This document shows positions 33,674 through 51,047 of a DNA stretch of 51,546 nucleotides, piece by piece (the stretch's first letter is position 1; each line of letters starts with the position of its first letter). The position numbers and the translations under genes are program-made. The notes beneath the pieces were generated by a model. It had not been told where the DNA came from, ran no database searches, and saw only the letters and a list, made by a program, of their open reading frames with translations. The stretch is from an uncultured Bdellovibrionales bacterium (GTDB lineage: Bacteria; Patescibacteriota; Minisyncoccia; Moranbacterales; UBA1568): contig CAZTYU010000005.1 of assembly GCA_964617535.1 (NCBI GenBank), positions 6,096 through 57,641 on the forward strand, written 5' to 3'.

Positions 33674-36600
33674 CTACTTCGGCACGAGGCTACAATCCTG
33701 GCTATTGATATTCGTACTCCAGCCATTGATTCCAGCACCATTGTTTCGTACGTAACTGCCGGGACCGATAACATTGTTCCGGATGGTGATGTCCCGGAAA
33801 TAGTAGTTCCCCGGATCCGACCCATTATCCTCCGGATTACCGACATAATTGTATGCCTGGATACCGGCCGTAAAGCAGTTCTTTTCGATGATGACATTGC
33901 CGAAGCTTCCGAACACACCTGCTGGGACACCGTTTGTCTGACGGACGGTATTGCGCGCGATATAGTTGTTGCTTCCCGGATCCCTCGGATTGCCGTCTTG
34001 CGGCGTATCAGCCGCGTCGCCGATCGTGAATGCTGCCCCGGTCGGTTCGATGATATTCACGTCGAAGTAATTATCGAGGAACTGCATATTGCTCGACTCG
34101 AATCCGCTGAGGACATCGCTCGGCATCGTGCCACGGATATCATTTCCCTGCGATACCCCTCCATTCACCCAAGAATACTCGATCGCATGATTGTACTTAT
34201 CGGTCGGGCGGATGTTGCGGATCGTATTGTACAGCGTCGAAACGTTGGTCGAGTAGCGAATGCGGATGCCGTGGTTCGCATCGTCGATCGCATTGTGTTC
34301 GACAGTGATGTTGTTCGCTCCGCTCGTGACATTCACCGCCTCGCCACCGCAAGGACCAATCTCTGAATCTCGGATGATTACATTCGACACGCCCGAGACC
34401 GTGATGCAGGCGCCGCCCGGATTGGAAATGCGCATCCCAGCGATCACCTGACCCGAAGAGGCGTTGATCGGACCAGAATTTGTGAAACTCGAGACGCGCG
34501 GACCGGCTGATCCACCAGTTGGCGCTGGAGTAGGCGTCGGCGTGGGTGTCGGAGTAGGCGTCGGTGTTGGGGTCGGTGCAGGACTTCCCCCTCCCGTTAC
34601 CGTGAGCGTCCCGACTTTGTAGCGGTTCGAACCGCTCGGATTGGTGACGCCCGTACCCATCTGAAGCGCCTGGTCAGTCCAAGGGTTGCCGCCTGAGAGA
34701 CCCACCCGGATATCGTACGTTCCTGACGGGAGATCGGCTGGAACCGTCACGTTCCGGACATCGGAAGCGCTCCCTGACCAGGTGGCTGAATTGACGCCGT
34801 GATCATCCACCGAAACGATGGTTGTTCCGTTGTCGAAGTGCATGAACTGGAGTAAATTGTCGGCCATTGCCACGCGATCCCAGTTGAGTGTGATCGAGAT
34901 GGTCTCGCCAGCGGAAGCATTGTACGTGTACGGGGTGGCAGCGTTCACCCGGGTAGTGGTCGGGGCTGGTGTCACGACGCTCTTTCCGGCGCTACAGCTC
35001 GCGGTAGTGCCGCCAGAGAGTCCGGCGCAGGTCCAGGTGTAGCCATCCGTTCCCGTCGCGACGCTCGAAGCGGTGCCTTGGGTGCAGAGATTGGTCGATG
35101 GCGCCACCGGAAACGTTCCGCCATTCGAAACGCCACAGACACCGTTTACCGGAGCCGGAGCAGTCGGAGCGGCCGAGACGAATTGGAACCAGTCGATGTT
35201 GGCGATGCCCGATCCGCCCTGCATGGCGAGGACGACCGTGTGGAGGCCAGTCACGGTCTGCGAGAGGTTGATGGACTGTTCAGTGTACACGAACCAGTCG
35301 CCGGTATTCGCGACGGTGAGCGAGCCGATTTTGGTACCGCCGAGCGAGTCGAGGTAGACATCGATATTCTGCCCGGCGTAATCGGCTGGGACAGCGACGC
35401 GGAACTTCATACCTTTGGCGCCGCCCGTACCGAAATTCACATTGTCGTAGCGGAGCCAGTCGCCGCCGTCGAGGAAGCCGACATGATCAGCCGAAACGGT
35501 TGCCCCCTGCATTCCATCGGCACTTTCAGCCTGCACCGAAGAAAAAGCGCTCCGACCGACCAATCCCCCTCCCGTTACCGTGAGCGTCCCGACTTTGTAG
35601 CGGTTCGAACCGCTCGGATTGGTGACGCCCGTACCCATCTGAAGCGCCTGGTCAGTCCAAGGGTTGCCGCCTGAGAGACCCACCCGGATATCGTACGTTC
35701 CTGACGGGAGATCGGCTGGAACCGTCACGTTCCGGACATCGGAAGCGCTCCCTGACCAGGTGGCTGAATTGACGCCGTGATCATCCACCGAAACGATGGT
35801 TGTTCCGTTGTCGAAGTGCATGAACTGGAGTAAATTGTCGGCCATTGCCACGCGATCCCAGTTGAGTGTGATCGAGATGGTCTCGCCAGCGGAAGCATTG
35901 TACGTGTACGGGGTGGCAGCGTTCACCCGGGTAGTGGTCGGGGCTGGTGTCACGACGCTCTTTCCGGCGCTACAGCTCGCGGTAGTGCCGCCAGAGAGTC
36001 CGGCGCAGGTCCAGGTGTAGCCATCCGTTCCCGTCGCGACGCTCGAAGCGGTGCCTTGGGTGCAGAGATTGGTCGATGGCGCCACCGGAAACGTTCCGCC
36101 ATTCGAAACGCCACAGACACCGTTTACCGGAGCCGGAGCAGTCGGAGCGGCCGAGACGAATTGGAACCAGTCGATGTTGGCGATGCCCGATCCGCCCTGC
36201 ATGGCGAGGACGACCGTGTGGAGGCCAGTCACGGTCTGCGAGAGGTTGATGGACTGTTCAGTGTACACGAACCAGTCGCCGGTATTCGCGACGGTGAGCG
36301 AGCCGATTTTGGTACCGCCGAGCGAGTCGAGGTAGACATCGATATTCTGCCCGGCGTAATCGGCTGGGACAGCGACGCGGAACTTCATACCTTTGGCGCC
36401 GCCCGTACCGAAATTCACATTGTCGTAGCGGAGCCAGTCGCCGCCGTCGAGGAAGCCGACTGAGACATCGATCTTCTCTGCGCCCTGCATACTGTCATAC
36501 CCCTCACCCTGGATAGTCGCGTATGCATCACGGGTAGTCGAAGTATCGACAACCTTCCACTTGTAGACGCTTGTGACTTTCTTTTTGGTCGTAGTCTGCG

Positions 36601-37363
36601 CTTCAGCCCGATTGATGAGTCGTGGGAGGAATCGCGATGCCTGAGTGCTCGGGTATTCGACTTGGACTGTCAATTGGTAATCCCCCGGGGCAAGGCCAGT
36701 GTAGGTCTGTGGACTCGCACAGGCAGAGAACGGCGCCCCGTTGAGCGAACATGTGACGCTTTGGGCGGTAGAACTGGGGTTACTGACCGCAAAGGTAAAC
36801 GTCGCCGATGTCTCGGTCGTGATCGTCACCGGGGCGGTCTGGAAGGAGACTGACGGTAGCGCGGACGAAGCGACTGAACTCGACGTCGAGGTCATCCCTG
36901 ATTGTGACGTCGTACTGCACTGAAAGCTATCCCATCCCGTCCGGACCAGGGTCGAGTTAAAGATCGAGGTCCCACTCGTATCCCGGATACTGAGGATAAA
37001 GTTTACGATCACCCAGGCTAAAAGGATGATGGCAAAGCCGATGAGGGCGGCCATGATCCCCCCTTTGGCAAAGCGCATCCGTCCCTCATCGCCAGCCGAA
37101 GTAATGTAGACAAAGGCCATGGCGACAATCACCGCGATGGCAATCGCACTCATGATGTTCCGGAGGAAGACGATGATGCTATTGATCCCGACCACCAAAT
37201 GGCAGAGGGTGCACTTCACGGTCTGATCACCCGTCTGATTGGGATCATCGGTCGTGAGGCCGCAGGGAATGATGCCGGCGTGGGCGGGTGTAGGAGCAAA
37301 GGTAAACGCGAACCCGCCCACGAGAACAAAGACCCAGACAAGCACGGCGATTGATCGCTGCAT
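33674..37363 (-). CDS. Secreted/membrane-anchored multidomain protein: T4SS (TrbC/VirB2-like) pilin module, Ig-like, 2x [CBM6-like + Cys-rich + beta-sandwich], PT linker, right-handed parallel beta-helix
   Basis: 1,229 aa. Signal peptide ...APTPAHA. Pilin-like IIPCG..VKCTLCHLVVGINSIIVFLRNI plus two TM helices around SAGDEGRMRFAKGG. CBM6-like GEGYDSMQG..GFLDGGDWLRYDNVNFG..IDVYLDSLGGTKIG..TGDWFVY..NIDWFQF. Linker PTPTPTPTPTPTPTP. PbH1-like repeats NVIIRDSEIGPCGG.. NITVEHNAIDDANHGIRI.. STLYNTIRNI. Confidence 0.85.
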   Translation of the reverse strand: MQRSIAVLVWVFVLVGGFAFTFAPTPAHAGIIPCGLTTDDPNQTGDQTVKCTLCHLVVGINSIIVFLRNIMSAIAIAVIVAMAFVYITSAGDEGRMRFAKGGIMAALIGFAIILLAWVIVNFILSIRDTSGTSIFNSTLVRTGWDSFQCSTTSQSGMTSTSSSVASSALPSVSFQTAPVTITTETSATFTFAVSNPSSTAQSVTCSLNGAPFSACASPQTYTGLAPGDYQLTVQVEYPSTQASRFLPRLINRAEAQTTTKKKVTSVYKWKVVDTSTTRDAYATIQGEGYDSMQGAEKIDVSVGFLDGGDWLRYDNVNFGTGGAKGMKFRVAVPADYAGQNIDVYLDSLGGTKIGSLTVANTGDWFVYTEQSINLSQTVTGLHTVVLAMQGGSGIANIDWFQFVSAAPTAPAPVNGVCGVSNGGTFPVAPSTNLCTQGTASSVATGTDGYTWTCAGLSGGTTASCSAGKSVVTPAPTTTRVNAATPYTYNASAGETISITLNWDRVAMADNLLQFMHFDNGTTIVSVDDHGVNSATWSGSASDVRNVTVPADLPSGTYDIRVGLSGGNPWTDQALQMGTGVTNPSGSNRYKVGTLTVTGGGLVGRSAFSSVQAESADGMQGATVSADHVGFLDGGDWLRYDNVNFGTGGAKGMKFRVAVPADYAGQNIDVYLDSLGGTKIGSLTVANTGDWFVYTEQSINLSQTVTGLHTVVLAMQGGSGIANIDWFQFVSAAPTAPAPVNGVCGVSNGGTFPVAPSTNLCTQGTASSVATGTDGYTWTCAGLSGGTTASCSAGKSVVTPAPTTTRVNAATPYTYNASAGETISITLNWDRVAMADNLLQFMHFDNGTTIVSVDDHGVNSATWSGSASDVRNVTVPADLPSGTYDIRVGLSGGNPWTDQALQMGTGVTNPSGSNRYKVGTLTVTGGGSPAPTPTPTPTPTPTPTPTPAPTGGSAGPRVSSFTNSGPINASSGQVIAGMRISNPGGACITVSGVSNVIIRDSEIGPCGGEAVNVTSGANNITVEHNAIDDANHGIRIRYSTNVSTLYNTIRNIRPTDKYNHAIEYSWVNGGVSQGNDIRGTMPSDVLSGFESSNMQFLDNYFDVNIIEPTGAAFTIGDAADTPQDGNPRDPGSNNYIARNTVRQTNGVPAGVFGSFGNVIIEKNCFTAGIQAYNYVGNPEDNGSDPGNYYFRDITIRNNVIGPGSYVRNNGAGINGWSTNINSQDCSLVPK
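34586..35482 (-). repeat. Tandem tract copy A (897 nt), identical to 35564..36460
   Basis: Direct comparison of the two stretches shows identity from TCCCCCTCCCGTTACC... to ...GAGGAAGCCGAC, with a period of 978 nt. The antisense track ORFs 34818..35042 / 35796..36020 and 35073..35357 / 36051..36335 are identical pairs. Confidence 0.95.
35564..36460 (-). repeat. Tandem tract copy B (897 nt), identical to 34586..35482
   Basis: As for copy A. The two copies are separated by a non-repeated 81-nt segment (35483..35563). Confidence 0.95.
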
Positions 37364-37603: not shown

Positions 37604-40600
37604 CTAACGGCCCGAGTTGTACAGCGCTTGCACCTCAGCTGCCGAAAGCGCCCGATTATAGACACGCACTTCGTCGATGAGTCCGTTGAAGTTATTGCTC
37701 GTATTGCCCTGGCCCTCCATCCCGATGCGCGTGCCGGCACCGCCGGTATACGATATCGAGTTGGTATAGCTCGTCGTCTTCACGGCCGTGCCATCGACAT
37801 ACAGCACCTGAGTATTGGCCGTATCGTCAAAGGTATAGGCGTAGTGGTGCCAGCCCGTACCGGCATAATAGGTCAGATTCGAAGTCTGATTCCAAGTCGT
37901 CCCGTCATAGTAGAACCCGGTCAGCCCGCCCGGCGAGGTAGAGTCGAGGTCGATCGCCACTTTATCCCCGAGGCTGATGAGCGTCGCGCCGCTCGTATCG
38001 GCCGAATTCAGCTTGGCCCAGCCGGCGACGGTGATATTGGCCGGACTGCTGAAGAGTCCCGAGACCGCCACATAGTCGTCCGTTCCGTCGAGACTCACTC
38101 CCTGCCCGAGCTTACCGATCACCTTTGTCGGGCTGTTGGTCAACGTACCCGTATTCCCCGCTCCGCTCCGGTCATAGGCGGTCGTCGCGGCCATGTCTTG
38201 ACCATTGAACGACCAGTAACCGACGAGTCCCGTATCCGTCCCGGTCGGTGCAGAGAGACGATAGAGCTGTGCAACTTCGTCAGCCGAGAGGACACGACTA
38301 TAGATTCTTACCTCGTCAAGCTGACCGCTATAATAATCCGACGCGTCAGGGTAGCGACCAACCGAAAGTTGGTTACCCGCATCGCTCTGTCTACCAGTTG
38401 CGTTTCCGCTACTATCTGCACTCGTAGGAGATCCGTTCACGTAAAGCCGCATGTTTGTTGTGCTATCCCCGTCTTGCGAAGCACACACATGTGTCCACTG
38501 ACTGAAAGGGACGACAGCTCTATTGGCCTCAATATACCCCGATGAACTCGTTCCCTTAAAGCTCGTTCCGATCCCGTGACCACCTGTATAGCCGTTTATG
38601 AGGTACAAGTCCCAGCCAGAAGTTAATCCTACATTAAACGTATTCACAACCCCCGGAAACGAGGATCCATTATCTATGGGATTCACCCAGGTACAAGCGG
38701 TGAATCGAGAAAGGTCAGTAAAGGCCGATGAGCTAGACGCACCGATATAATCATTCGTTCCATCGAAACTGACTGCACTCCCGATCTGTCCGGTCGTCCA
38801 GGTCGGACCATTGGTCAGTGTCCCCGCATTTCCATTTACGCTCGCATCGCTCGCACTCGTCCCCGAACCATCGTCGAGCTTCCAGTATCCGACGAGACCA
38901 CTGTCGGCGCGGCCTGTCCCCTGTGGGGTCGAGACGCTGGTATTTGTTTTGTCCGGTGTGCCGATGTCATAGAGAGCTTTCACCTCCGCTGTCGAGAGCG
39001 CCCGGCTATAGAGCCGCGTCTCATCAATCCGCCCGTCAAAATAATTCAATCCGAGCCCCCCGCTCCCGCCGCCGCCGGTGTAACTGTTCAGGTTGGTACC
39101 GGAGTATGCAAGTGTTGAGGCATTTGCAGAGTTCTCGAGAACCCCGTCAACATAGAGACTCATCGTCGTACCGTCGAAAGTAACTACCGCATGGTGCCAG
39201 CCGCCGACGATATTCGTCGAACCAGTGATCGTCCCAGCCGATGGATTTGTACCATCCCCCCAGCGCACGACGTACGGACCGCTCGTCGCCGTGTCGTCCG
39301 CCTGAGAAAGTGACCAGCCATTGTCCCAGCCTGAGTCGGAATAAGAGGGGTTAAAGATAAGCCGGTACGTAGTCGCATCGCCCGTATCCGCATACGTCCA
39401 AGTCGAAAGCGTGAAATTGGTCGGCTTCAGCACTGCGCTGTTCGAGTTGTCGACATAGTCGTTCGTCCCATCAAAATTGAGTGCCTGCCCGACCCGGCCG
39501 ATACCCCGCACAGCACCGGAAAGCGTCCCTGTGTTGCGGCTGCCGCTTCGATCAAAGGCCAGTGTACTGGTCATGTCCTGCGCGTTCATCGACCAGTAGC
39601 CACGGAGACCTGTATCAACGCCCGTTGCTGCCGTCTGGTTATAGAGCATGATCACGTCCTCAGCCGAGTACGCCCGGTCATAGATACGGATCTCGTCGAG
39701 ACTCCCAGCAAACTGCAGTCCTGCCCCGGGCGTATCGCCGATCGAGAGCGCTATCGTATTGGCAAGCGTCCCGATATTGCCTATCGTGCCACTATCGGTC
39801 GCGGCCAAAGGTAGACCATCGACATAAATTTCACTGTTGGCCGGGCTGTCCTGGTCCCAGACTGCGACAAAGTGGTGCCACCCGGCGCTGGTAATTGCAT
39901 AGCCGTTCGCAGCAACGGAATAGGTGTCCGTACCATCGAAAACCTCGAGGTTGAGCGCATCAGCCGAGTCGTCAATGTAGACCCGATATCCAGGGTTCGT
40001 GCCATCCCATTTACTCACGATTGCATCGACGGTCGTATAGGTCGATCGATTGAACCAGCCAGCTATCGTCATATCGTCCGTATCGCCGAAATCGAGCACG
40101 CCGTTTGCCGGGTCCGAGAGCGCGATATAGTCATTGGTCCCATCGAACGTAACAGCCGATCCGATTCGGCCCGTTCCCCAGGTCGGCCCGTTCGTCAGCG
40201 TCCCGGCGGCGGTCGCATTCACGCTTGCGTCGGCAGCACTCGTCCCTGTCCCTTCATCTAGCGGCCAGTAGCCGACAAGGCTGGATTCAGGATTCCCTGA
40301 GCCGGCCGGTTGGGCAGCACTGGTGTTTGCTTTGTTCGCACTCCCAGCATCATAGAGTGACTTTACTTCGCTCGCGGTGATGATGCGGTTATACACCCGC
40401 GCCTCATCGATCACGCCGTCAAAGAGCTCGCCCGGCGTCCCAGTATTGTTGTATGCGCCGATATACATATCCCCCGTTGCTTCGCTAGAGGCAGTACCAA
40501 CGGGCGCCTGATTTTCATACGTTGTGGTCAGCGCACCATTCACATAAAATACCGGATCGTTTGCGACCGACGAATTGTTATATGTGACACAAACATGCGA

Positions 40601-41836
40601 CCACTGATTATAGGGTATCGTTGTCGTACCAAACCACCACCCCGCTGTCGTACTGAATGTTCGATAGAACGAGATTCCAAGGTTTGAAAAAGTAGAGTAG
40701 TCCAAAAGCATTTGCCAACCAAGTCCGGAGTTATTGTATTTGGTCGTAATATCGCCGTAAGTGGTGAGCGAACTATTCGGCTTCACCCAGGCGCAGGTCG
40801 AGAGGTTCACGATATCGTCGACGATCGCACCCGACCCGGCATTCACATACTGCGTACTGGCTGAGGCAAAGTTCAGCGCCTGGCCGATTTTCCCTACCGT
40901 CTTTGTTGGCGTGTTCACAAGCGTGCCGGTGTTGCGCCCACCCGATCGGTCGCTGACGAGCGTACTGCGGAAATCATCTGCCCCGAACGCCCAGTACCCG
41001 ACGAGTCCCGTGTCTACCCCGGTCGGAGCCGTCAGTTTATAGAGGTCATTGATCTCGGCCGGTGACAATGCGCGGTCGTAGACGCGTGCCTCGTCGATGA
41101 GGCCATCAAAGGGGTTGCCGTTATCGCTCTCGGCACCGAGCCGGAATGCGACCGCGTTGGACAGATCACCGATGTTCCCGATCGTGCCGCTTTTCGTCCC
41201 ATTGTCATCGCGTCCATCGATATAGACTTCGACATTGGTCGCGCTGTCCTGGTCCCAGACGAAAGCGAAATGATGCCAGCCAGCCGAAGTGAACGAGGTC
41301 GCCGAGGTGATAGAATACTCATCCGTCCCATCGGACACTTCGAGCGCGATGAGGTCAGTCGTGTTGTCGATATTCACGATATAACCGATATCAGCCGCCG
41401 TATTGCTGTTGCGTTTGGCCACGACTGTATCAATAGTATTGAACGATGTCGTGCGGTTGAACCAGCCCGTGATCGTGATATCGTCCGTATCCCCGAAATC
41501 GAGCGTCGCCGTATCCGCCGTCGTCGCATAGTCATCCGTCCCGTCAAAATCGATAGCCGAACCGATTTGTCCCGTCGTCCAGGTCGGACCATTGGTGAGC
41601 GTCAGCGCGGTGATAGTATTAACGCTCGCATTAGCAGCGCTCGTCCCCGTCCCCTCGTCGAGTTTCCAGTATCCGACCAGCCCCGCCCCGAGCCCACCAT
41701 CACCGACCTCGGGGCCCGCATTCGTATTCACCTTCACCCCGGCACGCACGGCGAAATACCAGTAGCCCCCCGCTAATAATGAAAGGGCGACAATAATTCC
41801 CAGCCACTGCCATGTGCGACTACTGGTGTGTGTCAT
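37604..41836 (-). CDS. Giant membrane-anchored surface protein with six LamG/concanavalin-A-like (Laminin_G_3-type) domains, paralogue 1
   Basis: Six units each run from ..GL(V/R)GYW.(L/F)(D/N).. through TLTNGPTW..GQIGSA..FDGT(N/D)DY ... WHH ... (Y/F)(V/I)(D/N)G ... to (I/L)DE(V/A)R(V/I)Y.RALS..E(V/I)..LY. The signal anchor is MTHTSSRTWQWLGIIVALSLLAGGYWYF. I prefer the ATG at 41836; the track start at 41866 translates a conserved repeat element. Confidence 0.88.
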   Translation of the reverse strand: MTHTSSRTWQWLGIIVALSLLAGGYWYFAVRAGVKVNTNAGPEVGDGGLGAGLVGYWKLDEGTGTSAANASVNTITALTLTNGPTWTTGQIGSAIDFDGTDDYATTADTATLDFGDTDDITITGWFNRTTSFNTIDTVVAKRNSNTAADIGYIVNIDNTTDLIALEVSDGTDEYSITSATSFTSAGWHHFAFVWDQDSATNVEVYIDGRDDNGTKSGTIGNIGDLSNAVAFRLGAESDNGNPFDGLIDEARVYDRALSPAEINDLYKLTAPTGVDTGLVGYWAFGADDFRSTLVSDRSGGRNTGTLVNTPTKTVGKIGQALNFASASTQYVNAGSGAIVDDIVNLSTCAWVKPNSSLTTYGDITTKYNNSGLGWQMLLDYSTFSNLGISFYRTFSTTAGWWFGTTTIPYNQWSHVCVTYNNSSVANDPVFYVNGALTTTYENQAPVGTASSEATGDMYIGAYNNTGTPGELFDGVIDEARVYNRIITASEVKSLYDAGSANKANTSAAQPAGSGNPESSLVGYWPLDEGTGTSAADASVNATAAGTLTNGPTWGTGRIGSAVTFDGTNDYIALSDPANGVLDFGDTDDMTIAGWFNRSTYTTVDAIVSKWDGTNPGYRVYIDDSADALNLEVFDGTDTYSVAANGYAITSAGWHHFVAVWDQDSPANSEIYVDGLPLAATDSGTIGNIGTLANTIALSIGDTPGAGLQFAGSLDEIRIYDRAYSAEDVIMLYNQTAATGVDTGLRGYWSMNAQDMTSTLAFDRSGSRNTGTLSGAVRGIGRVGQALNFDGTNDYVDNSNSAVLKPTNFTLSTWTYADTGDATTYRLIFNPSYSDSGWDNGWSLSQADDTATSGPYVVRWGDGTNPSAGTITGSTNIVGGWHHAVVTFDGTTMSLYVDGVLENSANASTLAYSGTNLNSYTGGGGSGGLGLNYFDGRIDETRLYSRALSTAEVKALYDIGTPDKTNTSVSTPQGTGRADSGLVGYWKLDDGSGTSASDASVNGNAGTLTNGPTWTTGQIGSAVSFDGTNDYIGASSSSAFTDLSRFTACTWVNPIDNGSSFPGVVNTFNVGLTSGWDLYLINGYTGGHGIGTSFKGTSSSGYIEANRAVVPFSQWTHVCASQDGDSTTNMRLYVNGSPTSADSSGNATGRQSDAGNQLSVGRYPDASDYYSGQLDEVRIYSRVLSADEVAQLYRLSAPTGTDTGLVGYWSFNGQDMAATTAYDRSGAGNTGTLTNSPTKVIGKLGQGVSLDGTDDYVAVSGLFSSPANITVAGWAKLNSADTSGATLISLGDKVAIDLDSTSPGGLTGFYYDGTTWNQTSNLTYYAGTGWHHYAYTFDDTANTQVLYVDGTAVKTTSYTNSISYTGGAGTRIGMEGQGNTSNNFNGLIDEVRVYNRALSAAEVQALYNSGR

Positions 41837-41860
41837 ACAGTTCGACCCGTTAGAGACAGG

Positions 41861-41963
41861 TCCCACTTAGAATCCATCCAATTCATTCGATGGTTGTGCT
41901 GGTCCACTATTCGTTTTTCTGATACGTATTGAATCATCGTCAGTATATTTTGGATTCTAACGG
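41861..41963. mobile_element. 103-nt AT-rich MITE-like insert with 10-bp terminal inverted repeats, flanked by direct GACAGG
   Basis: TTAGAATCCA (41867..41876) pairs with TGGATTCTAA (41951..41960). GACAGG occurs at 41855..41860 and again at 41964..41969. The equivalent junction upstream of LamG-2 (46483..46500) lacks the insert. Confidence 0.3.
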
Positions 41964-42210: not shown

Positions 42211-45200
42211 TTAACGGCCTGAATTATACAATGCCCCGATCTCGCTCGCCGAGAGAATGCGACTATACGCCCGCACTTCATCGATCGCGCCGGTAAAGGC
42301 GTCCGGTCCGTCCGGCACCGATCCGATGCGGGTTTCGGCAGTAGCATCGGTCCCATAGGTCGTACAGCCCGCTAGTGACTCCGAGAAACTCCCATTGGCA
42401 TACAGATCTGTCGAAGTCGTTGTGACAACCAAGGCGAGGTGTGTCCACTCATTCGTCGGCGGCGAATAGTCAAAGGTGAGAGTAGTCCCCGAACCACAAT
42501 TGAGGGTTACTTCGCCTGTCCCTGAATACAAGAGAAAACCGAAACGCATATCATTACTCGCAAAGGTATCGCGCTTCGCGATGATGGTGCCGAAATCAGA
42601 AAAGTTCGTCGGCTTCACCCAGCTCGTGAGTGTGAAGGAAGCCGTAGAAAAATCAAAAGCGGTGCCAACACTGATGTAATCATTCGTCCCGTCAAAGGTC
42701 ACTCCTTGGCCCAGCTTGCCGCGCGCAACAGTCGGTCCATTCGTCAGTGTGCCATCGTTTCCCGCTCCGCTCCGGTCATAGGCCGTCGTACCAACGGTAT
42801 CCTGCCCATTGAACGACCAGTAGCCTTTCAGACTCGTATCGGTCCCCGTCGGCACGCCGAGGCTGTAGACCTGGCGGATCTCATCGTCCGAGAGCACGCG
42901 GCGATATACCCGGACCTCGTCAATCAATCCGGAAAAGGCTACTGTCGAGCCTGGTTCATCCCCGATAGCCAGATCCATCCCAGCGGTACTGCTCCGGGCG
43001 GCGCTTCCTGCACTATCAGTCGCCGCCACCAAGGAGCCGTTCTGATAGAGCCGGAAACCCGAGCCCGATGTGCCCACCTGGACACCGCAGATATGGGTCC
43101 ATGAGCCCGTCGGCAGTCCACTTGTTCTTTCCGCGTAGACATTTCCGTTGTACGATGTCCCGAAACCGAGATTGCTATCGACCTGATCGATATAGAGGTC
43201 CCAATAGGCCGCTCCGCCGCTGTACCGGCTGACGATGTTGCCATAGTTGTGGGTATCATTGCCATCCGGATTGACCCAGGCGCAGAGCGTAACATCGATG
43301 ATGTCATCCAATGACGCTGGATTGGAGACAAGGACATGGTCGTCCACACCATCGAAATCCACCGCGCTGCCGATCCGGCCCGTCCCCCATGTCGGACCGC
43401 TCGTGAGCGTCCCGGCAGAAAAAGCGTTCGCACCGGAATCCGCCGCGCTCGTCCCGGTTCCCTCGTCGAGCTTCCAATAGGCGGCCAGATCCGAATCAAG
43501 CCGGCCGGTCCCCTGCGGCGTCGAGACGCTCGAGTTCACCTTGTCCGGTGTGCCTCGGTCGTAAAGCGCCTTGATCTCAGCAGCTGACAGGACGCGGCTA
43601 TAGGCACGGGCTTCGTCGATCTGGCCAGACCAAAAAAGCCCGCCGTGACCGTTGCAGTTCCCACCGATTTCCACAGCATTGGATGTCGAGGTAAGCGCCC
43701 CGCCCGCCCATGCGGTCGTAGTATCTAGCCTGCCATCGACATAGATGAGGATCGTCGACCCGTCATAGGTGAACGTCGCCATGTGCCACTCGCCATCATT
43801 TACATCAATCGCTCCCTCTACGACTCCGCTGACCGTCGAGCCGTTCGCGAGATAGACCGCTACTTTTCCGACCGTAGAAAAATTCACTCCGAAGTCCACG
43901 GGCCCATCCCCGGATGTCCCCCCACAAAAAGATTTGTCGATGAAGTGCTTCTCGGTCGTCGCCGTCGTCTTGATCCAAGCAGACCAGCTCGTCGTCGTGA
44001 GTCCGTCGAGCGCATCAACATCGCCCATCGTGATATAGTCATTCGCTCCGTCGAACTGGATCGCTTGGCCGACGCGCCCGCGTACTGCTACCGGACTACT
44101 GGTGACCGCACCCCAGTTACCCAAACCACTCCGATCGTATACACCCCATGAAGTCAGTGAGGCTGAAGTATCCGATCCATCAAGTGACCAGTAGCCGCGG
44201 AGACCGGTATCGATGCCACTTGTCTGAACTGTCGCGCGGTAGAGCAAATTAACGTCAGCATTCGTTAGCGGTCGAGTATAGACCCGTACATCGTCGAGCT
44301 TGCCATCAAACGGATTGCCACCATCACTCTCGGCACCGACCGTAAAAGCCAGCGTGTTCGCGATATTGTCCACGTAGTGCAGATAGGAGGCGCAACTTCC
44401 GGTATCGGTGACATCTACACCATCGACAAATATCCTCGGGCACTGGAAGAATCCGCTCGGATTGAGGTATTCATCAAACATCACAACGAGATGATGCCAG
44501 CCCGTCGTCGTATAGGTAGTCGTCGAAGTGGACTGCGATATGTCAGGCGTATTGGTCGTCGATTGCACCTTGGCATAGATTTTGTCGTCCACGTCGTCGA
44601 TGTAGACGACATAGCCGTCACCCGTCGCCGGGTCATCTTTCTTTGCGACGAGAGTGTCATCGGTCGTCGCGGTATCGCGATTGAACCAGAGCGAGACACT
44701 AAAGATGTCACCATTCCCGTTGTCGCTCGGCAGGGCGAAATCGAGTATCCCGCTCGCCGGGTCGGCGACCGCTACATAATCATTTGTCCCGTCGAAATCG
44801 ACCGCACTCCCGATCTGCCCGGTGGTCCAGGTCGGTCCGTTTGTGAGCGTTCCATCGTTTTGACCGACGCCCTTGTCGTCCGCGTTCGTCCCGGTCCCTT
44901 CGTCGAGCGGCCAGTAGAGAGCGAGGCCAGCTGCGAGGTCGCTGCCGCCCTGCGGCTGCGTCCCGCCGGTATTCGCGAGATTCGGTGTACCGCGATCATA
45001 CAGCGCCTTGATTTCCGCGGCGGTAAAGAGGCGATTATAGATCCGCACCTCATCGATATTTCCGTCGAAGAAATTCGACACCCCGTTATCATAGCTCCCG
45101 ATATTGACATCCATCGGCGCATCGCTCTCCATCGTTCCCGATGGAGACTGTGTCTCGGTCACTGCAACCGACACGGCATTGATATAGACAGTCGGATCAT

Positions 45201-46473
45201 TGGCAGTCGAGGTCCGATTGTACACCATGCAGAGATGCGTCCACTTATTTTTTGGCAGACTGCCGGTCGCCGTATTCCACTGTGCATAGCCCAAACCCCC
45301 GCTCCAGCCGCTGAACACTGTAAGCAGTTCATTGGCTCCATCCGCCATGAATTGCCACCCGGTCGATGAAGCATCTTTCGCGACAAGCGTTCCATCGCCA
45401 GCGTCCTCTACGTTTGCCCAGAGACAGACCGTCAAATTCGAGATGTCATCGAGGTTCGCTGGGGAACCCATCCCGATATAGTCATCCACCCCGTCGAAAC
45501 TCATCGCTTGGCCGACCCGGCCTGCAATCGGCGTCGGGGCCGGCAGCGTTCCCGTTCCGAACGGCGTCCCTCGATTTGCCCCACCGCTCTGATCATAGAC
45601 ATAATCGCCGCGCTCCGTAGCGTCGAACGACCAGTAGCCTTTCAAACTCGTATCGACCCCGGTCGGCGATGTGAGACGGTACAGCTCGGCTGCCTGTTCG
45701 GCCGTAAAAGCCCGGGTCGGATAGTACCGCACCTCGTCGATCTTGCCGTCGAACGGGTTGCCGCCGTCGCTCTCGGCGCCGATACGCTGCGCCAGCGCAT
45801 TCCCCACCGGCTCCATATCGTTGATATTGCCGGTCACCGTCGGACTGTCGGGCAGGCCGTTGATATACATGGTCAGATCACCGCTACTTGGCGACATGGT
45901 GACGACGAAATGATTCCAACCCGTCGCCGTAAAGGTCGATGTCGAAGCGAGCTGATATTCGTCTACCCCATCGGAAAATTCAAAGATAAGCAGATCCGTC
46001 GCATCGTCGACATACACTACATAGCCATCTTCTGCTGCTGTAATGCCATTTCTCTTTGCAACGATCGTATCGTCCGTAGTAAAAGTGTCACGGTTGAACC
46101 AACCAGCGATGGTAAAGCGCGATCGCTCCAGCGCGAGCTCGAGCGGATCAGCATCCGGGGCGGTCACATAATCGTTCGTTCCGTCGAAATCCAACGCATA
46201 ACCGATCTGACCAGTCGTCCAGGTCGGACCATTGGTGAGCGTACCCGTCGCACCATTCACGCTCCCGTCAGTCGTACTCGTCCCGGTGTTTTCGTCGAAT
46301 CTCCAATACGCGGCGAGGCCATTCGCCGGATCGTTCGCCCCAGCTGTCTGGCCCGCTGTCGTGTTCGTCTTCACCCCGGCGCGCACCGCAAAATACCAGT
46401 AGCCCGCCCCCAACGTAATCAGGACGAGTATGATTCCTAGCCACTGCCATGTGCGACTGCTGGTGTGTGTCAT
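42211..46473 (-). CDS. Giant membrane-anchored surface protein with six LamG-like domains, paralogue 2
   Basis: 1,420 aa with the same (A/B)x3 LamG architecture and the signal anchor MTHTSSRTWQWLGIILVLITLGAGYWYF. Its start codon overlaps the GIY-YIG stop (ATGA at 46470..46473). Confidence 0.9.
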   Translation of the reverse strand: MTHTSSRTWQWLGIILVLITLGAGYWYFAVRAGVKTNTTAGQTAGANDPANGLAAYWRFDENTGTSTTDGSVNGATGTLTNGPTWTTGQIGYALDFDGTNDYVTAPDADPLELALERSRFTIAGWFNRDTFTTDDTIVAKRNGITAAEDGYVVYVDDATDLLIFEFSDGVDEYQLASTSTFTATGWNHFVVTMSPSSGDLTMYINGLPDSPTVTGNINDMEPVGNALAQRIGAESDGGNPFDGKIDEVRYYPTRAFTAEQAAELYRLTSPTGVDTSLKGYWSFDATERGDYVYDQSGGANRGTPFGTGTLPAPTPIAGRVGQAMSFDGVDDYIGMGSPANLDDISNLTVCLWANVEDAGDGTLVAKDASSTGWQFMADGANELLTVFSGWSGGLGYAQWNTATGSLPKNKWTHLCMVYNRTSTANDPTVYINAVSVAVTETQSPSGTMESDAPMDVNIGSYDNGVSNFFDGNIDEVRIYNRLFTAAEIKALYDRGTPNLANTGGTQPQGGSDLAAGLALYWPLDEGTGTNADDKGVGQNDGTLTNGPTWTTGQIGSAVDFDGTNDYVAVADPASGILDFALPSDNGNGDIFSVSLWFNRDTATTDDTLVAKKDDPATGDGYVVYIDDVDDKIYAKVQSTTNTPDISQSTSTTTYTTTGWHHLVVMFDEYLNPSGFFQCPRIFVDGVDVTDTGSCASYLHYVDNIANTLAFTVGAESDGGNPFDGKLDDVRVYTRPLTNADVNLLYRATVQTSGIDTGLRGYWSLDGSDTSASLTSWGVYDRSGLGNWGAVTSSPVAVRGRVGQAIQFDGANDYITMGDVDALDGLTTTSWSAWIKTTATTEKHFIDKSFCGGTSGDGPVDFGVNFSTVGKVAVYLANGSTVSGVVEGAIDVNDGEWHMATFTYDGSTILIYVDGRLDTTTAWAGGALTSTSNAVEIGGNCNGHGGLFWSGQIDEARAYSRVLSAAEIKALYDRGTPDKVNSSVSTPQGTGRLDSDLAAYWKLDEGTGTSAADSGANAFSAGTLTSGPTWGTGRIGSAVDFDGVDDHVLVSNPASLDDIIDVTLCAWVNPDGNDTHNYGNIVSRYSGGAAYWDLYIDQVDSNLGFGTSYNGNVYAERTSGLPTGSWTHICGVQVGTSGSGFRLYQNGSLVAATDSAGSAARSSTAGMDLAIGDEPGSTVAFSGLIDEVRVYRRVLSDDEIRQVYSLGVPTGTDTSLKGYWSFNGQDTVGTTAYDRSGAGNDGTLTNGPTVARGKLGQGVTFDGTNDYISVGTAFDFSTASFTLTSWVKPTNFSDFGTIIAKRDTFASNDMRFGFLLYSGTGEVTLNCGSGTTLTFDYSPPTNEWTHLALVVTTTSTDLYANGSFSESLAGCTTYGTDATAETRIGSVPDGPDAFTGAIDEVRAYSRILSASEIGALYNSGR

Positions 46474-46865: not shown

Positions 46866-49800
46866 CTACTTCCCAGAGCTGTAGAGCGCCTTGATTTCAC
46901 TTGCCGAAAGTTCTCGGTTATACACCCTTACTTCGTCCAATTTCGTATTGAGAAAATTTCCATAGTTCGTATCATTCTGCCACTGCGCGCCGATTGCGAA
47001 TCGCCCGCCGGTTGTCCCGAGCGGGCTTTGTGGCGTGCCGGTCGTCGGTACTAAAACACCATCAATATAAAGCTTTGCCGATGAACCATTTCGTGTGACA
47101 ACAACGTGGCGCCAACCAGACGAAAGTGTCGCTGATCCGATGACGCCCGTCGAAGAACAGCCCGATTCCGCAAAGGTGACCGAGGTGCTATCCACATCTA
47201 TCCGCGGATTATAGAAGCACCCTCCGGAATTGCCCCGCATAAGCGGGCTGCCTGTCGCTGAACCGGTCTGATTTACCCAAAACGCCACCGAATAGAGCGT
47301 CTGCTCGGTCGTATAATCGCCGAGCGCAATATAATCGTCCGTTCCATCAAATTGGAGCGCTTGGCCAAGCTTGCCCCACTTCACGGCTGGGCCACCAGTC
47401 AGCGTGCCGTCATTCCCCGCGCCGCTTCGATCATAGGCCGTCGTGCCACTCATATCCTGGCCGTTGAAACTCCAGTAACCCTTCAGCCCCGTATCGGTCC
47501 CAGTTGGCGTTCCAAGCCGGTAGAGCTGCCCCACCTCGTCCGCCGAGAGCGTGCGTCTATATATCCTGACATCGTCAATGAGGCCGTTGAAGTAGCTCGC
47601 GCCACCGCCAGACCAGCACCGACCGATGGTGATATTTGATTCGGTATTTACGGTCAATGCACTCGAGCTCGATTCGACAATCTTGGTCCCGTCGAGATAA
47701 ATGCTATTTGTTGTTCCTTGGTTCGTATATACCACATGGTGCCAGGTTGTGCCGAGGCCGGTTACTTGAGTGGAAACATACCCGCCAGTACCCGAAGACC
47801 CAAAGATGAGGTTCTCCGTACCTGTATTGTCATAGAGGAGACACTGATGATTCGAGCCCTCCTCTCCATTGATCTGACCGATTATCGGCATACCATCGAC
47901 AGCCGCATCTCCCTTTACCCAAGCTGCGACCGTAATCGAATCCGCCGAAACGAGTGTCGTCCCGAGACTGATGTAGTCATCAGTCCCGTCGAAGTCCACC
48001 GCGCTCCCGATCTGCCCCGTCGTCCATGTCGGTCCATTGGTGAGCGTCCCGGTAAAGCCGTTCGTACTCGCATCGGCCGCGCTCGTCCCAGAGCCCTCAT
48101 CGAGTTTCCAGTAGCCGGCGAGGCCTGAGTCGAGCCGACCAGTACCCTGTGGAGTCGAGACGCTCGTATTTGTCTTGTCAGGAGCGCTCGCATCATACAG
48201 CGACTTGATCTCGGCTGCGGTGAGAGCACGAGAGTATATCCGAACTTCGTCGATTAGAGCATTGGCATTTCGAGCGCTGGGATCAGAAACATCTGTACCA
48301 ATCACAAAGTCTGAAGAATTGGAAACTGATCCAGAGGGAGTTTCTGTATCAACTACGACACCATCAATATAGAAAGACATAGCACTCCCTGAGCGGACAC
48401 CGTAATAATGGTGCCATTGATTATCATTCGTTGTTGCTACAGTTGCCGTAGCATAATAGTCGGTCGTACCATTGCCGACAAAGAAAGACATGGTATTCGT
48501 ACTATCGTAAAGAAAAGCATACCCAGCTGAGTTAGGTGAACTGATGGGCTTCTTGGCGAGAGGAATATTGGCTGAACTCCCCTGACTCGAGTAGCCCCGT
48601 CCCTTCATCCAAAAACCGACTGAGAAGTCCCCCGAGCCGAAATCGAGGATGCCCGATGACGGGTCGCCCATCGTGATATAGGCATCCGTATCTGATCCGT
48701 TCGGGAAAAAGTCGAATGCCTGTCCCACGCGCCCTCCTTTCACCGCAGGACTATTGGTTATCGTCCCATTGTTTCCTGCGCCGCTCCGATCATAGGCCGT
48801 CGTACCGGATATGTCTTGGCCATTGAACGACCAGTAGCCCTTGAGGCTCGTATCGACGCCCGTCGGGGCAGTCAGGCGGTAGAGCTGAGCCACTTCATCT
48901 GCCGAGAGGATGCGGTCGTACAGGCGTGTCTCATCGATTTTCCCAGAATAATAGTCTTGGACTCCACCAAAGCTCCCAAGATACCCAGTAGTCGCCGTTG
49001 CGTCATCTACCGCTCCGGTGGTCGTTGTGCTCGATCCAGCCAGTGCGCCATCAATGTAAAGGGTTGCTCCAACCGCATCATCCCAGGTTGCTGTCAGATG
49101 ATGCCAGCCTTGATACTCCGAGGTGCTCGTATACGTCGGGCCGGCTACATCAGCATACGTTCCATAACTGCCGCGATAGAGCAATTCCCAGTGGTTATAC
49201 CCCACGGAGCAGCTGTTGAATTGGAGCTGCACATGGCTCCCCGGGGTCTCTGCCGCGAAGACGTTGCTATACGTACAGAGACTCAGAGCCTCGGTCGTAT
49301 TGACCCATGCCGATATGGTTCCTTTACGTGGGATCTTGGTCGCAAAAGATACATGGTCATTCGTCCCGTCAAAATTCACCGCGCTTCCGATTTGCCCAGT
49401 CGTCCAGGTCGGACCGTTAGTGAGCGTACCATTGTTGGCATTGACGCTTTTGTCGGCCGTACTCGTACCGGTGTTTTCATCAAAGGGGAAATACGCAAAG
49501 AGGCCGGAGTCAAGATTGCTTGTCCCCTGTTTCTGTCCCGCACTGGTGTTCGCCCTGTCAGGGCTGCCACGGTCATAAAACGACTTAATTTCATTTGCCG
49601 AAAGCGCGCGGTTGTAGACCCTTACCTCATCGAGGTTACCATTGAAAAATGCATCTGAAGCCGGACCACGAGTACCCAGTTTTGCGGTATAGGTTGAGGT
49701 TGCATATCCGCCACTAGTCGAATCGGAATTTGCGGTACTCGATTGAAGAATACCATCTGCATAGATCAGAAAACTATTGCTCGCATACGAGGTCGTGTTT

Positions 49801-51047
49801 GTCGTGATGACAAACGCGAAGTGATGCCACTGATTATCATTAAATCCGGTTTGAACTGATAGCCTACCTGATTGTCCACCATCACTGTTTTTAATCGTAG
49901 CCGTTAATCTTCCGCTTGTATCACCATCGAGACCGACATACCACCCGTCAGGAATATATCCTCCTTGTGAAATGAAGACTCCTCCCGTTGCAGAGGGGGC
50001 AGATTTGAACCAGCCCGTAGCAGTAAACGTGGTATTGGCGAATTGGTAAGGTGTGCTGACACCTAGATCGACATAATCATCCGTCCCGTCGAACTGGAAC
50101 GCTTGGCCAGCGCGACCATCAGTCACGGTTGGACCATTCGTGAGTGTCCCAGTATTTCCCGCGCCGCTCCGATCATAGGCGTTCGTCCCGGACACCGAAT
50201 CGCCATTAAACGACCAGTAGCCTTTGAGTCCCGTATCGACACCTGTCGGAGCAGTCAGGCGATAGAGCGACGAAACTTCGTCAGCCGACAGGGGCCGATC
50301 ATAGACGCGAACCTCGTCCAGCTTACCGTTAAAGTAGCCGGTAGCCGAATTAGTGCTGCCGATATACATCGTCCCTGATCCGGATGGGTACCCGCCCGCG
50401 ACCGTATCGGTACCCGTCGAATCAAGCGCCCCGTTGATATAAAAAGACACATTTGGCTTATCGAAAGTGGCCGCCACGTGCACCCACTGCCCCGCCGCAA
50501 CTGCTCCAGTTGAATATACAAACGCTCCGCCACCTCCCTGGTGGGACATTAGCTTTGTTGACGAACCATCGTGATAGAGCGCCAGCCCGTAGTAGGTATT
50601 GGAATCACCAGACGAATACTTTCGGACTATCTGGTACGTGGTGCCATTGGTCATGGTGCCATCGATATAGACCCAGGCAGCAACTGTCTTCTTGTCCTTT
50701 ACAATCGGGGTATCGCCCGTGCCAGCCGTTATATAATCATTTGTCCCGTCGAAATCGACCGCGCTCCCGATCTGCCCAGTGACCCAGGTCGGGCCATTGG
50801 TCAGCGTCCCGGTATTGCCATTGGTACTCGCATCCGCCGCGCTCGTTCCGGTGTTTTCATCGAGCTTCCAGTACCCGGCTAGTCCGGCAGAGAGGTCGCC
50901 AGTACCCTGTAACTGACTGCTGCTCGTATTTGTCTTTACGCCCGCGCGCGCAGCGAAATACCAACAGCCCGCGGCGAGAGCAGCCAGAATAAGCAGTATT
51001 CCTACGTACTGGAAGGTTCGCGATCGGGTGAGGGAGTATGCAGACAT
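46866..51047 (-). CDS. Giant membrane-anchored surface protein with six LamG-like domains, paralogue 3
   Basis: 1,393 aa with signal anchor MSAYSLTRSRTFQYVGILLILAALAAGCWYF, six LamG units and the same C-terminal ...LDEVRVYNRELSASEIKALYSSGK. Confidence 0.9.
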   Translation of the reverse strand: MSAYSLTRSRTFQYVGILLILAALAAGCWYFAARAGVKTNTSSSQLQGTGDLSAGLAGYWKLDENTGTSAADASTNGNTGTLTNGPTWVTGQIGSAVDFDGTNDYITAGTGDTPIVKDKKTVAAWVYIDGTMTNGTTYQIVRKYSSGDSNTYYGLALYHDGSSTKLMSHQGGGGAFVYSTGAVAAGQWVHVAATFDKPNVSFYINGALDSTGTDTVAGGYPSGSGTMYIGSTNSATGYFNGKLDEVRVYDRPLSADEVSSLYRLTAPTGVDTGLKGYWSFNGDSVSGTNAYDRSGAGNTGTLTNGPTVTDGRAGQAFQFDGTDDYVDLGVSTPYQFANTTFTATGWFKSAPSATGGVFISQGGYIPDGWYVGLDGDTSGRLTATIKNSDGGQSGRLSVQTGFNDNQWHHFAFVITTNTTSYASNSFLIYADGILQSSTANSDSTSGGYATSTYTAKLGTRGPASDAFFNGNLDEVRVYNRALSANEIKSFYDRGSPDRANTSAGQKQGTSNLDSGLFAYFPFDENTGTSTADKSVNANNGTLTNGPTWTTGQIGSAVNFDGTNDHVSFATKIPRKGTISAWVNTTEALSLCTYSNVFAAETPGSHVQLQFNSCSVGYNHWELLYRGSYGTYADVAGPTYTSTSEYQGWHHLTATWDDAVGATLYIDGALAGSSTTTTGAVDDATATTGYLGSFGGVQDYYSGKIDETRLYDRILSADEVAQLYRLTAPTGVDTSLKGYWSFNGQDISGTTAYDRSGAGNNGTITNSPAVKGGRVGQAFDFFPNGSDTDAYITMGDPSSGILDFGSGDFSVGFWMKGRGYSSQGSSANIPLAKKPISSPNSAGYAFLYDSTNTMSFFVGNGTTDYYATATVATTNDNQWHHYYGVRSGSAMSFYIDGVVVDTETPSGSVSNSSDFVIGTDVSDPSARNANALIDEVRIYSRALTAAEIKSLYDASAPDKTNTSVSTPQGTGRLDSGLAGYWKLDEGSGTSAADASTNGFTGTLTNGPTWTTGQIGSAVDFDGTDDYISLGTTLVSADSITVAAWVKGDAAVDGMPIIGQINGEEGSNHQCLLYDNTGTENLIFGSSGTGGYVSTQVTGLGTTWHHVVYTNQGTTNSIYLDGTKIVESSSSALTVNTESNITIGRCWSGGGASYFNGLIDDVRIYRRTLSADEVGQLYRLGTPTGTDTGLKGYWSFNGQDMSGTTAYDRSGAGNDGTLTGGPAVKWGKLGQALQFDGTDDYIALGDYTTEQTLYSVAFWVNQTGSATGSPLMRGNSGGCFYNPRIDVDSTSVTFAESGCSSTGVIGSATLSSGWRHVVVTRNGSSAKLYIDGVLVPTTGTPQSPLGTTGGRFAIGAQWQNDTNYGNFLNTKLDEVRVYNRELSASEIKALYSSGK

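Follow-up and report, generated by a model that had tools for sequence, protein, structure and literature searches.

A T4SS_pilin-family module joined to a predicted carbohydrate-targeting passenger in a Moranbacterium

Introduction

The conjugative pilins TraA and VirB2 are made with a signal peptide and form a two-helix hairpin, in which the helices are connected by a short basic loop and both termini lie on the outer side. Small, stand-alone proteins with a comparable layout are known from the Candidate Phyla Radiation (CPR) and belong to the Pfam family T4SS_pilin (PF18895; T4SS, type IV secretion system). These VirB2-like/PF18895 pilins are encoded near virB4 in 1,135 of 1,948 CPR assemblies, and their genes occur as arrays of 2-11 (PMC12102498). 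Such arrays have been described in Saccharibacteria and other classes (Wang et al. 2023, PMC10633639; Quinonero-Coronel et al. 2025, PMC12102498), and in Southlakia epibionticum such an array is essential (PMC10633639, PMC12857230). The published work treats CPR pilins as small proteins and leaves long fusions unmentioned (PMC12102498, PMC10633639, PMC12857230), and targeted literature searches found no description of pilin-enzyme fusions. The gene examined here lies at positions 33674-37363, on the minus strand, of a 51,546-nt stretch of DNA (contig CAZTYU010000005.1 of GenBank assembly GCA_964617535.1, positions 6,096-57,641; hereafter, the window). The SufB encoded in the window falls into a 90%-identity cluster in which the named proteins are from metagenome-assembled genomes of Ca. 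Moraniibacteriota, and the source of the window is a member of this group, in agreement with an earlier annotation of this DNA (hereafter, the first-pass annotation), which had suspected a CPR cell. The gene appears to join a PF18895 module to a C-terminal passenger of 1,075 aa.

The window protein shares with the described CPR pilins the family, the phylum and the layout of signal peptide, Cys loop, two transmembrane (TM) helices and basic loop, and the family as a whole is associated with VirB4. It differs from those small, stand-alone proteins in that it carries the passenger, has no T4SS locus within the 51.5 kb of the window and lies outside a pilin array. The canonical pilins VirB2, TrbC and TraA resemble the module in their signal peptide, hairpin and short basic loop, whereas they have neither a disulfide-locked ectodomain nor a passenger, and no sequence or profile similarity between them and the module is detectable.

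A pilin or assembly domain is combined with a lectin or adhesin domain in FimH and PapG of the chaperone-usher pili, in the type IVb minor pilins CofB and TcpB, and in sortase-dependent tip adhesins. The likeness to the window protein is that an assembly-competent pilin module is joined to a glycan-binding ectodomain, in a minor or tip subunit that stands beside a major pilin. The folds and machineries are unrelated, however, and the window protein has a T4SS-pilin-type hairpin as its anchor, a probable enzyme within its passenger and a hypothetical place in a filament. As for the passenger, the combination of CBM6 domains, linkers and a beta-helix is the classic modular layout of beta-helix carbohydrate-active enzymes and related proteins (PL6, GH28, GH110, GH136 and tailspikes), whereas the beta-helix of the window protein comes from an uncharacterised family and such enzymes are not known to be anchored by pilin modules. 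The VirB1 lytic transglycosylases and PrgB, a T4SS adhesin of Gram-positive bacteria, are comparable in that they provide accessory wall cutting and adhesion, and sister proteins of the window protein fuse an SLT domain directly to the pilin module. In the described systems, by contrast, VirB1 and PrgB are separate proteins, and the window passenger is composed of CBM6 and beta-helix domains and is neither SLT- nor PrgB-like.

Results

The gene is a single open frame for 1,229 aa, which begins with ATG and continues without interruption beyond the pilin module, exactly as the first-pass annotation had described (all features of the gene given below lie on the minus strand). A chance origin of the frame is excluded because it extends over 3.7 kb, its Pfam matches reach E values of 1e-47, and its N-terminal module has 4,313 homologues. 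Translation across the junction between the pilin module and the following linker proceeds in one frame, and neither a stop codon nor a second signal peptide occurs there. A separate passenger gene starting from M158 was ruled out, as its product would be without a signal peptide and the frame upstream of M158 contains no stop codon.

The protein starts with a predicted signal peptide (37277-37363, aa 1-29, MQRSIAVLVWVFVLVGGFAFTFAPTPAHA), which is indicated by hydropathy and a modelled helix, has an AxA-type cleavage site before G30 and bears no relation to the signal peptides of the stand-alone orthologues. It is followed by the PF18895 module (36899-37276, aa 30-155), which was delimited by Pfam, alignment invariants, an AlphaFold2 hairpin, and blastn and codon alignments to the stand-alone gene on contig L006. 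In Pfam, T4SS_pilin (PF18895) matched aa 60-123 with an E value of 5.7e-8 and 33.2 bits against a gathering cut-off of 26.6, and NCBIfam gave a sub-threshold match only, to a 'pilin-like conjugal transfer protein' of a Mycoplasma integrative and conjugative element. Hydropathy analysis identified hydrophobic segments at aa 1-27, 56-92 and 96-130, and the AlphaFold2 model of aa 1-200 contains a helix at 2-21 and a hairpin with helices at 52-89 and 97-129 connected by a loop at 90-96 (pLDDT of the helices, 70-84). The basic loop of the hairpin, TSAGDEGRMRFAKGG, carries three K/R residues. The module is thus laid out as a Cys loop (C34, C51 and C54), TM1 (~59-87), a basic loop (88-102), TM2 (~103-125) and a tail with W144 and C149, in which the Cys loop and the tail are predicted to be extracellular and the basic loop to be inside.

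The signature residues of the module family are C34, C51, C54, H55, Y86, G91, K100, G109, W117 and C149, and all the family invariants are present in the window protein. Its closest homologues are all PF18895 proteins, and the T4SS-pilin-type N terminus, with a significant family match within aa 1-140, stands as the first-pass annotation had proposed it. These results indicate that aa 1-155 is a bona fide PF18895 family module.

In contrast, a relationship to VirB2 and TraA, which had also been suggested, was not recovered by any sequence, profile or significant structural match. In the Pfam search, PF04956 (TrbC) had no match on the window protein at E <= 1, and the family profile of the N-terminal module had no match among PDB sequences. 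Foldseek with the aa 1-200 model returned nothing from the PDB at E <= 0.001, the query being a bare hairpin of pLDDT 70-84 with little discriminating power. When the family profile was aligned by hhalign with Agrobacterium VirB2 and with F TraA, the probabilities were 0.4% and 0.6%, respectively, which is no evidence of a relationship; both sequences had been entered by hand, and the profile is shallow (Neff 1.9). The label 'VirB2-like' rests on layout, gene neighbourhood and literature, whereas membership in PF18895 is established.

A word-indexed search with aa 1-150 returned 39 relatives, the closest of which are stand-alone PF18895 proteins of 152-157 aa with 84-93% identity. In the alignment, these stand-alone relatives terminate in '...WDSFQCSTTSQAQ*', and the window protein runs on from '...WDSFQCSTTSQSGMTSTSSS...'. 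The nearest relatives therefore stop exactly where the first-pass annotation had expected a pilin to end.

An exhaustive phmmer search over 1.84 billion cluster representatives yielded 4,313 homologues of the module, and the architectures were counted in the best 150. An N-terminal module with at least 100 further residues was seen in 65 (total length up to 854 aa), and 43 were stand-alone (<=220 aa). The module was C-terminal in 15 and present in several tandem copies in 6, and the 21 outside these classes were mostly longer proteins with an internal module. A survey of reference genomes, with one genome per species, covered 68 loci and 103 module-containing open reading frames (ORFs). The residues after the module numbered at least 100 in 49 of these ORFs, at least 200 in 16 and at least 400 in 4, with a maximum of 713. 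The small stand-alone size of about 100-160 aa, which the window protein does not match, is not family-defining because 65 of the 150 representatives and 49 of the 103 reference ORFs are extended by at least 100 aa. For the same reason, the fusion is not the exception within the pilin family that the first-pass annotation took it to be; the survey of homologue lengths that it proposed reveals that stand-alone and extended forms are both common.

Conservation of the signature residues is equally strong in fused (65) and stand-alone (43) representatives (C34, 97% and 100%; C149, 100% and 98%; K100, 98% and 98%, respectively). The retention of the Cys loop and the tail in the fused members is not what is expected of a degenerate leftover anchor.

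The passengers of the extended proteins are diverse. SLT lytic transglycosylase domains scored above the cut-off in two reference loci, L029 (8657-9778) and L045 (9914-11029), and among the cluster representatives, 10 fused proteins out of 65 carry an SLT-type passenger (SLT in 9, SLT_3 in 1). Other passengers recognised by Pfam comprise fn3, CARDB and Ig-like domains, and HExxH or Peptidase_M64-like passengers were found below the cut-off in three ORFs (L053:37-1902, L054:9863-11587 and L062:9884-11515). The Cys-rich module of the window protein, described below, is shared by the pilin fusions L013 and L014 (57-59% identity) and P0030. No other fused protein surveyed has a CBM_6 or Beta_helix passenger. 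At 1,229 aa, the window protein is the longest pilin fusion among those surveyed and, as judged from its predicted domains, the only carbohydrate-targeting one. These results indicate that a pilin-plus-passenger architecture recurs independently and is abundant in sequence data, and it is not described in the literature searched.

The junction of the window protein leads into a Ser/Thr-rich linker (36839-36898, aa 156-175, SGMTSTSSSVASSALPSVSF). Natural fusions elsewhere in the family have the same style of junction, W..F.C.TTS followed by an S/T/G linker, and the junction of P0031 shares 'TTSQSG' with that of the window protein. With few exceptions, the genomes that encode this pilin subfamily are those of Moranbacteria and Parcubacteria.

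In addition to the fusions, four single ORFs of ~500-580 aa (P0095, P0104, P0181 and P0188) contain five to seven tandem pilin modules. These 'poly-pilins' represent either another encoding of the published pilin arrays or a fusion of arrays introduced by gene calling.

The mature module of the window protein was compared with the stand-alone gene on L006 (sample SRR33394499). The two are 97.6% identical in DNA, with 9 differences in 377 nt, and the similarity is limited to nt 85-461 of the ORF (aa 29-154), corresponding to window positions 36903-37279 and L006:216-592. One edge of the cassette delimited in this way coincides exactly with the predicted signal-peptidase site, AHA|G, and the other lies two codons short of the stop codon of the stand-alone gene, whereas the signal peptide and both flanks in the window are unrelated to the L006 locus. 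The stand-alone orthologues on L006 and L007, by comparison, are 81% identical over the whole gene, including the signal peptide. Only one of the cassette differences changes an amino acid (I123V), so that the proteins are ~99% identical. When the substitutions were polarised with two outgroups, 4 derived synonymous changes and no clearly non-synonymous change were assigned to the fused lineage. The cassette is read as the product of a recent recombination or gene conversion between a plain and a fused gene, which would have been followed by purifying selection. The locus of the stand-alone orthologues differs from the window locus, and the ClpB orthologue that adjoins the stand-alone pilin gene is not among the ClpB genes of the window, which are paralogues only.

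The motif TATACTGA[A/G]AAAAA occurs upstream of both start codons, that of the window gene and that of the L006 gene, and may represent a shared -10 box and leader.

The passenger begins, after the linker, with an Ig-like beta-sandwich region at ~aa 176-274 (36542-36838), which contains the Cys pair C205/C215. The first-pass annotation had named an Ig-like module, and such a region was located here, though with sub-threshold PEGA and Y_Y_Y matches only in Pfam. The region is 33-52% identical to Ig-like parts of unrelated large surface proteins.

Downstream of this region, two units of the same order follow each other, each consisting of a CBM6, a Cys-rich module and a beta-sandwich of ~125 aa. 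The CBM_6 family (PF03422) was matched by two full-length copies with an E value of 2.1e-47. Copy 1 (36155-36541, aa 275-403) was assigned by Pfam and by the PDB entries 2v4v and 1gmm, and copy 2 (35177-35563, aa 601-729) by the best Pfam stretch at 611-729 together with an analysis of its edges. Against PDB sequences, the CBM6 gave E values of 7.5e-20 for 2v4v, 9.3e-17 for 1gmm and 1.7e-13 for 1uy1, and the alignment to 2v4v retains the GDW/GDY, TGDW and N..W motifs. The ligand-binding cleft of a CBM6 has an aromatic pair and an Asn, positions that may lie within these motifs. Cys-rich module 1 (35969-36121, aa 415-465) contains four Cys in the pattern CGVSNGG...C...W.C.G..GG...C, and module 2 (34991-35143, aa 741-791) is identical to it. 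This module of ~50-60 aa has no Pfam family, and more than 40 unrelated giant surface proteins, spread over many phyla, carry it with 54-71% identity; a homology search with the full-length protein found no full-length relative, its results being swamped by matches to the Cys-rich module. Beta-sandwich 1 (35564-35941, aa 475-600), which lies in the first repeat unit, was assigned to no family (sub-threshold MalQ_N match), and beta-sandwich 2 (34586-34963, aa 801-926) is identical to it. A (PT)n linker (34514-34585, about aa 927-950) leads to the C-terminal domain. The two CBM6 modules, the Cys-rich modules and the (PT)n linker of the first-pass annotation were all found by Pfam or in the translation.

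The C-terminal domain (33674-34513 including the stop codon, aa 951-1229) is a right-handed parallel beta-helix, as indicated by Pfam, AlphaFold2, Foldseek and its homologues, and is a putative polysaccharide depolymerase. Beta_helix (PF13229), a family of the pectate-lyase-like superfamily, matched aa 967-1100 with 28.7 bits against a cut-off of 25.9, and the AlphaFold2 model consists entirely of short beta-strands (pLDDT 91.4, pTM 0.91). Homologues with 45-60% identity over the full length number 89, most of them of 255-485 aa, and derive from Proteobacteria, Acidobacteria and metagenomes; those that are named are called 'right-handed parallel beta-helix repeat-containing protein' or NosD-like (PF05048), and none has a pilin module. 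Eight residues, D999, N1074, D1083, D1116, N1156, N1162, R1195 and N1197, are invariant across 34 sequences. The structural neighbours in Foldseek are PL6 alginate lyases, GH136, GH110 and GH28 proteins, phage tailspikes and RbmB. Pfam placed no Pec_lyase family on the domain, and the 'pectate-lyase type' named in the first-pass annotation is too specific an assignment, with no match to the pectate-lyase families PL1, PL3 or PL9. The carbohydrate-active type of the passenger as a whole, on the other hand, agrees with the CBM6 match to 2v4v and with the polysaccharide lyases, hydrolases and tailspikes among the neighbours of the helix. The fold and the accompanying domains argue for the beta-helix being a polysaccharide-active domain.

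The passenger contains 14 cysteines, which are even-numbered within each domain, as expected of an extracellular location. The predicted topology likewise agrees with the placement of the passenger outside the cell that had been proposed.

Within the passenger, 897 nt are repeated exactly and in direct orientation, with copy A at 34586-35482 (aa 628-926) and copy B at 35564-36460 (aa 302-600). The period of 978 nt is a multiple of three, and the frame is kept whatever the copy number. The 81 nt preceding each copy (aa 275-301 versus 601-627) are homologous with an identity of only ~43-48%, which then steps abruptly to 100%. A simple recent tandem duplication was ruled out as the origin of the repeat by this step from ~45% to 100% at the edge. 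The pattern suggests that two older copies underwent gene conversion or the replacement of a segment, and the true copy number could be above two. The repeat, the additional beta-sandwiches and the mosaic pilin cassette are features absent from the first-pass annotation.

An exact look-up of the neighbouring XseB identified 18 contigs; in the eight that were retrieved, identity to the window is 99.8-100%. Three of these contigs, from three other samples (L086, L088 and L090), are 100% identical to the window, extend from xseA through the whole beta-helix and end at window position 34615 or 34636, 30-51 nt inside repeat copy A, as a k-mer assembler does at a true repeat. Independent assemblies thus recover the repeat, the 3' end of the gene and the organism itself, and do not recover the pilin-passenger junction. 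No record was found for the exact fusion protein, whether it was looked up with the ATG start or with the GTG-7 start; this absence is judged uninformative, since the homology searches likewise missed the truncated products known from L086 and L088. When metagenomes were scanned with the first 173 aa of the passenger, only distant Ig-like matches in unrelated proteins were returned, with no pilin module upstream. The composition and the GC content at third codon positions are uniform across the ORF and its neighbours, a comparison of low power given that the relatives are similar in GC.

The linkage of the module family to T4SS genes was examined by clustering the large ORFs around the 68 reference loci and annotating the commonest clusters. 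Of the 68 loci, 19 have a gene for a VirB4-type ATPase (TraG P-loop, AAA_10, DUF87) no more than 10 kb away, always on the same strand and mostly about 5-7 kb upstream of the pilin-module gene. In these VirB4-containing loci, 13 of the 25 module ORFs are extended by at least 100 aa. For example, L054 has three extended pilin genes in a row, and the one for the 574-aa HExxH fusion lies ~5 kb downstream of the gene for a VirB4-like ATPase.

The window is chromosomal and encodes ClpB, HtrA, an aminoacyl-tRNA synthetase, IspH, SufBCDS, pyruvate:ferredoxin oxidoreductase and XseAB; searches of it for tRNAs and Rfam families gave no match. Directly upstream of the pilin-fusion gene and on the same strand, three paralogous proteins of ~1,400 aa are encoded (37604-41866, 42211-46473 and 46866-51047, minus strand), each with six Laminin_G_3 (concanavalin-like lectin) domains. 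Together with the pilin-fusion gene, they constitute a ~17-kb island of giant surface proteins. At least the first paralogue has a hydrophobic N-terminal segment that resembles a single TM anchor. A promoter and terminator scan gave a signal no better than that of shuffled sequence.

Elsewhere in the window, the region at ~17,800-20,010 forms a low-GC island (0.45 versus ~0.57), which contains a C5 cytosine DNA methylase gene (18654-20009) and an ORF of 267 aa (17858-18661) with no Pfam match. This island probably represents a restriction-modification unit gained by horizontal transfer. The start of the window cuts off a ClpB-like ORF (1-2500, minus strand), which is longer than 833 aa and has an unusually hydrophobic N-terminal region, and a second ClpB is encoded at 11953-14592; neither is the orthologue of the pilin-adjacent ClpB. 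Two consecutive ORFs of 580 and 385 aa (2501-4243 and 4247-5404, plus strand) match no Pfam family at E <= 0.001.

Discussion

The results described above suggest, with a probability of about 0.6, that the window contains a real fused Moranbacterium gene for a polysaccharide-targeting cell-surface protein tethered by its PF18895 module. The protein would be exported by the Sec pathway and cleaved by signal peptidase after AHA29. From hydropathy, charge and conservation, the module would then form a two-helix hairpin in the membrane, with the basic loop inside, both ends outside and the four invariant cysteines locking the structure. The N-out/C-out orientation is suggested by analogy with the conjugative pilins and by the extracytoplasmic nature of the SLT, fn3 and CBM passengers in the family. 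With both ends of the hairpin outside, the 1,075-aa passenger would be extracellular. Its family and fold assignments suggest that the two CBM6 would bind a glycan, either on a host cell or in a matrix, which the beta-helix would cleave or modify.

As to the fate of the exported protein, incorporation as a minor, 'decorated' subunit of a pilin fibre or a T4SS-associated structure is tentatively favoured, at somewhat under even odds, because its core shares ~99% identity with a plain pilin and has retained the signatures of the family. That it stays a static membrane-tethered enzyme is another distinct possibility, still short of an even chance, and release by cleavage or an artefact would account for the remaining cases. 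The exchange of cassettes would keep the anchor matched to the stand-alone pilin. A more far-reaching proposal, which is doubtful at present, is that Moranbacteria, and perhaps other CPR, have T4SS-dependent pilin fibres decorated with enzymes, in which extended subunits co-polymerise with a near-identical plain pilin. The passengers displayed in this manner would be lytic transglycosylases, metalloprotease-like domains, adhesive repeats and the CBM6-guided depolymerase. Such a filament would bind and digest host surface layers, and its decorated and plain cores would stay compatible through gene conversion.

Several observations weigh against a decorated, polysaccharide-active pilus subunit. 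No T4SS component was found among the ORFs of the 51.5-kb window. The stand-alone orthologues (L001-L005 and L008-L012) always lie between a ClpB paralogue and a divergent type IV pilus operon, which consists of PilM, two small genes, two T2SSE ATPases (PilB- and PilT-like) and a T2SSF protein (PilC), and no VirB4 gene occurs within 10 kb of the closest stand-alone orthologues. These neighbours raise the possibility that the 'T4SS pilin' is linked to type IV pili in this sublineage, and of the 'conjugative-pilin-type subunit' named in the first-pass annotation, the PF18895 membership stands and the conjugative setting is not supported. Furthermore, a 1,075-aa passenger on every subunit is sterically unfit for a conjugative-type filament, which leaves the protein the place of a minor or tip subunit only. 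In addition, no pilus made of PF18895 proteins, or of any CPR T4SS, has been observed yet (PMC12857230). The absence of T4SS genes here and around the closest orthologues, and the size of the passenger, would be accounted for if the PF18895 hairpin were merely an export signal and two-helix anchor for an exo-enzyme or adhesin and never entered a pilus or T4SS. The varied passengers on about half of the family are also expected of a general-purpose anchor, as is the lack of significant similarity to VirB2 and TraA. This explanation is considered somewhat unlikely: the fused members strictly keep the Cys loop, H55, W117 and C149, which a simple anchor would not need; extended pilins are encoded within VirB4-containing loci; and the cassette is ~99% identical in protein to a plain pilin, with synonymous drift only. 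A further point on the opposing side is that no independent contig was found that crosses the signal peptide-pilin or the pilin-linker junction. Together with the razor-sharp edges of the cassette relative to the stand-alone gene, the lack of the exact protein on record and the exact 897-nt repeat, which misleads assemblers and at which the contigs of other samples break, this leads to the question of whether the contig is chimeric or collapsed at the cassette, the repeat or both, such that the module and the passenger do not belong to one gene. Such an error is very improbable. As neither flank of the cassette matches the stand-alone locus, it would take two in-frame chimeric joins, and joining by k-mers requires pilin sequence at both edges of the true gene. 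Moreover, the cassette differs from L006 at 9 positions, 4 of them derived on the window lineage, the passenger has no signal peptide of its own, and the junction is of the style seen in natural fusions. The composition is uniform, the 978-nt period is frame-neutral, and the missing database record is uninformative.

The enzymatic role of the beta-helix has to be weighed in the same manner. Its Foldseek matches are weak (E >= 5.7e-4, TM score ~0.5), phmmer found no match to it among PDB sequences, and no assignment to a CAZy class or a specific catalytic activity is made. If the beta-helix were non-catalytic, it would serve with the two CBM6 to attach the cell to a host or a matrix, and the protein would be an adhesin and not an enzyme. 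The beta-helix adhesin PfbA (4mr0) is among the structural neighbours, and no catalytic family is assigned to the domain; the PrgB-type adhesin, moreover, was not detected in CPR T4SS loci, so that this role is vacant (PMC12102498). Nevertheless, a purely adhesive function is rather improbable, as Asp, Asn and Arg residues are invariant across the 34 beta-helix sequences, most of the structural neighbours are lyases or hydrolases, and sister pilin fusions carry true enzymes such as SLT.

CPR bacteria are host-dependent, and T4SS pilins are essential in the one system that has been tested genetically, whereas the role of the pilins is not known and no adhesin has been found (PMC10633639, PMC12102498, PMC12857230). 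In Moranbacteria, about half of the PF18895 proteins surveyed here have extracellular passengers, including domains that target cell walls or polysaccharides, and some are encoded within VirB4-containing loci, which suggests the testable idea that the pilin module serves as a display scaffold for binding and degrading the host surface. The pilin-SLT fusions ('VirB2-VirB1-like') could explain the apparent lack of VirB1 in most CPR genomes with VirB2 homologues, by taking over its function. If the module proves to be an anchor only, the finding would be less surprising and would still provide a useful annotation rule for a very abundant family. Among the proteins surveyed, the window protein has the most elaborate architecture, which suggests a glycan as its target.

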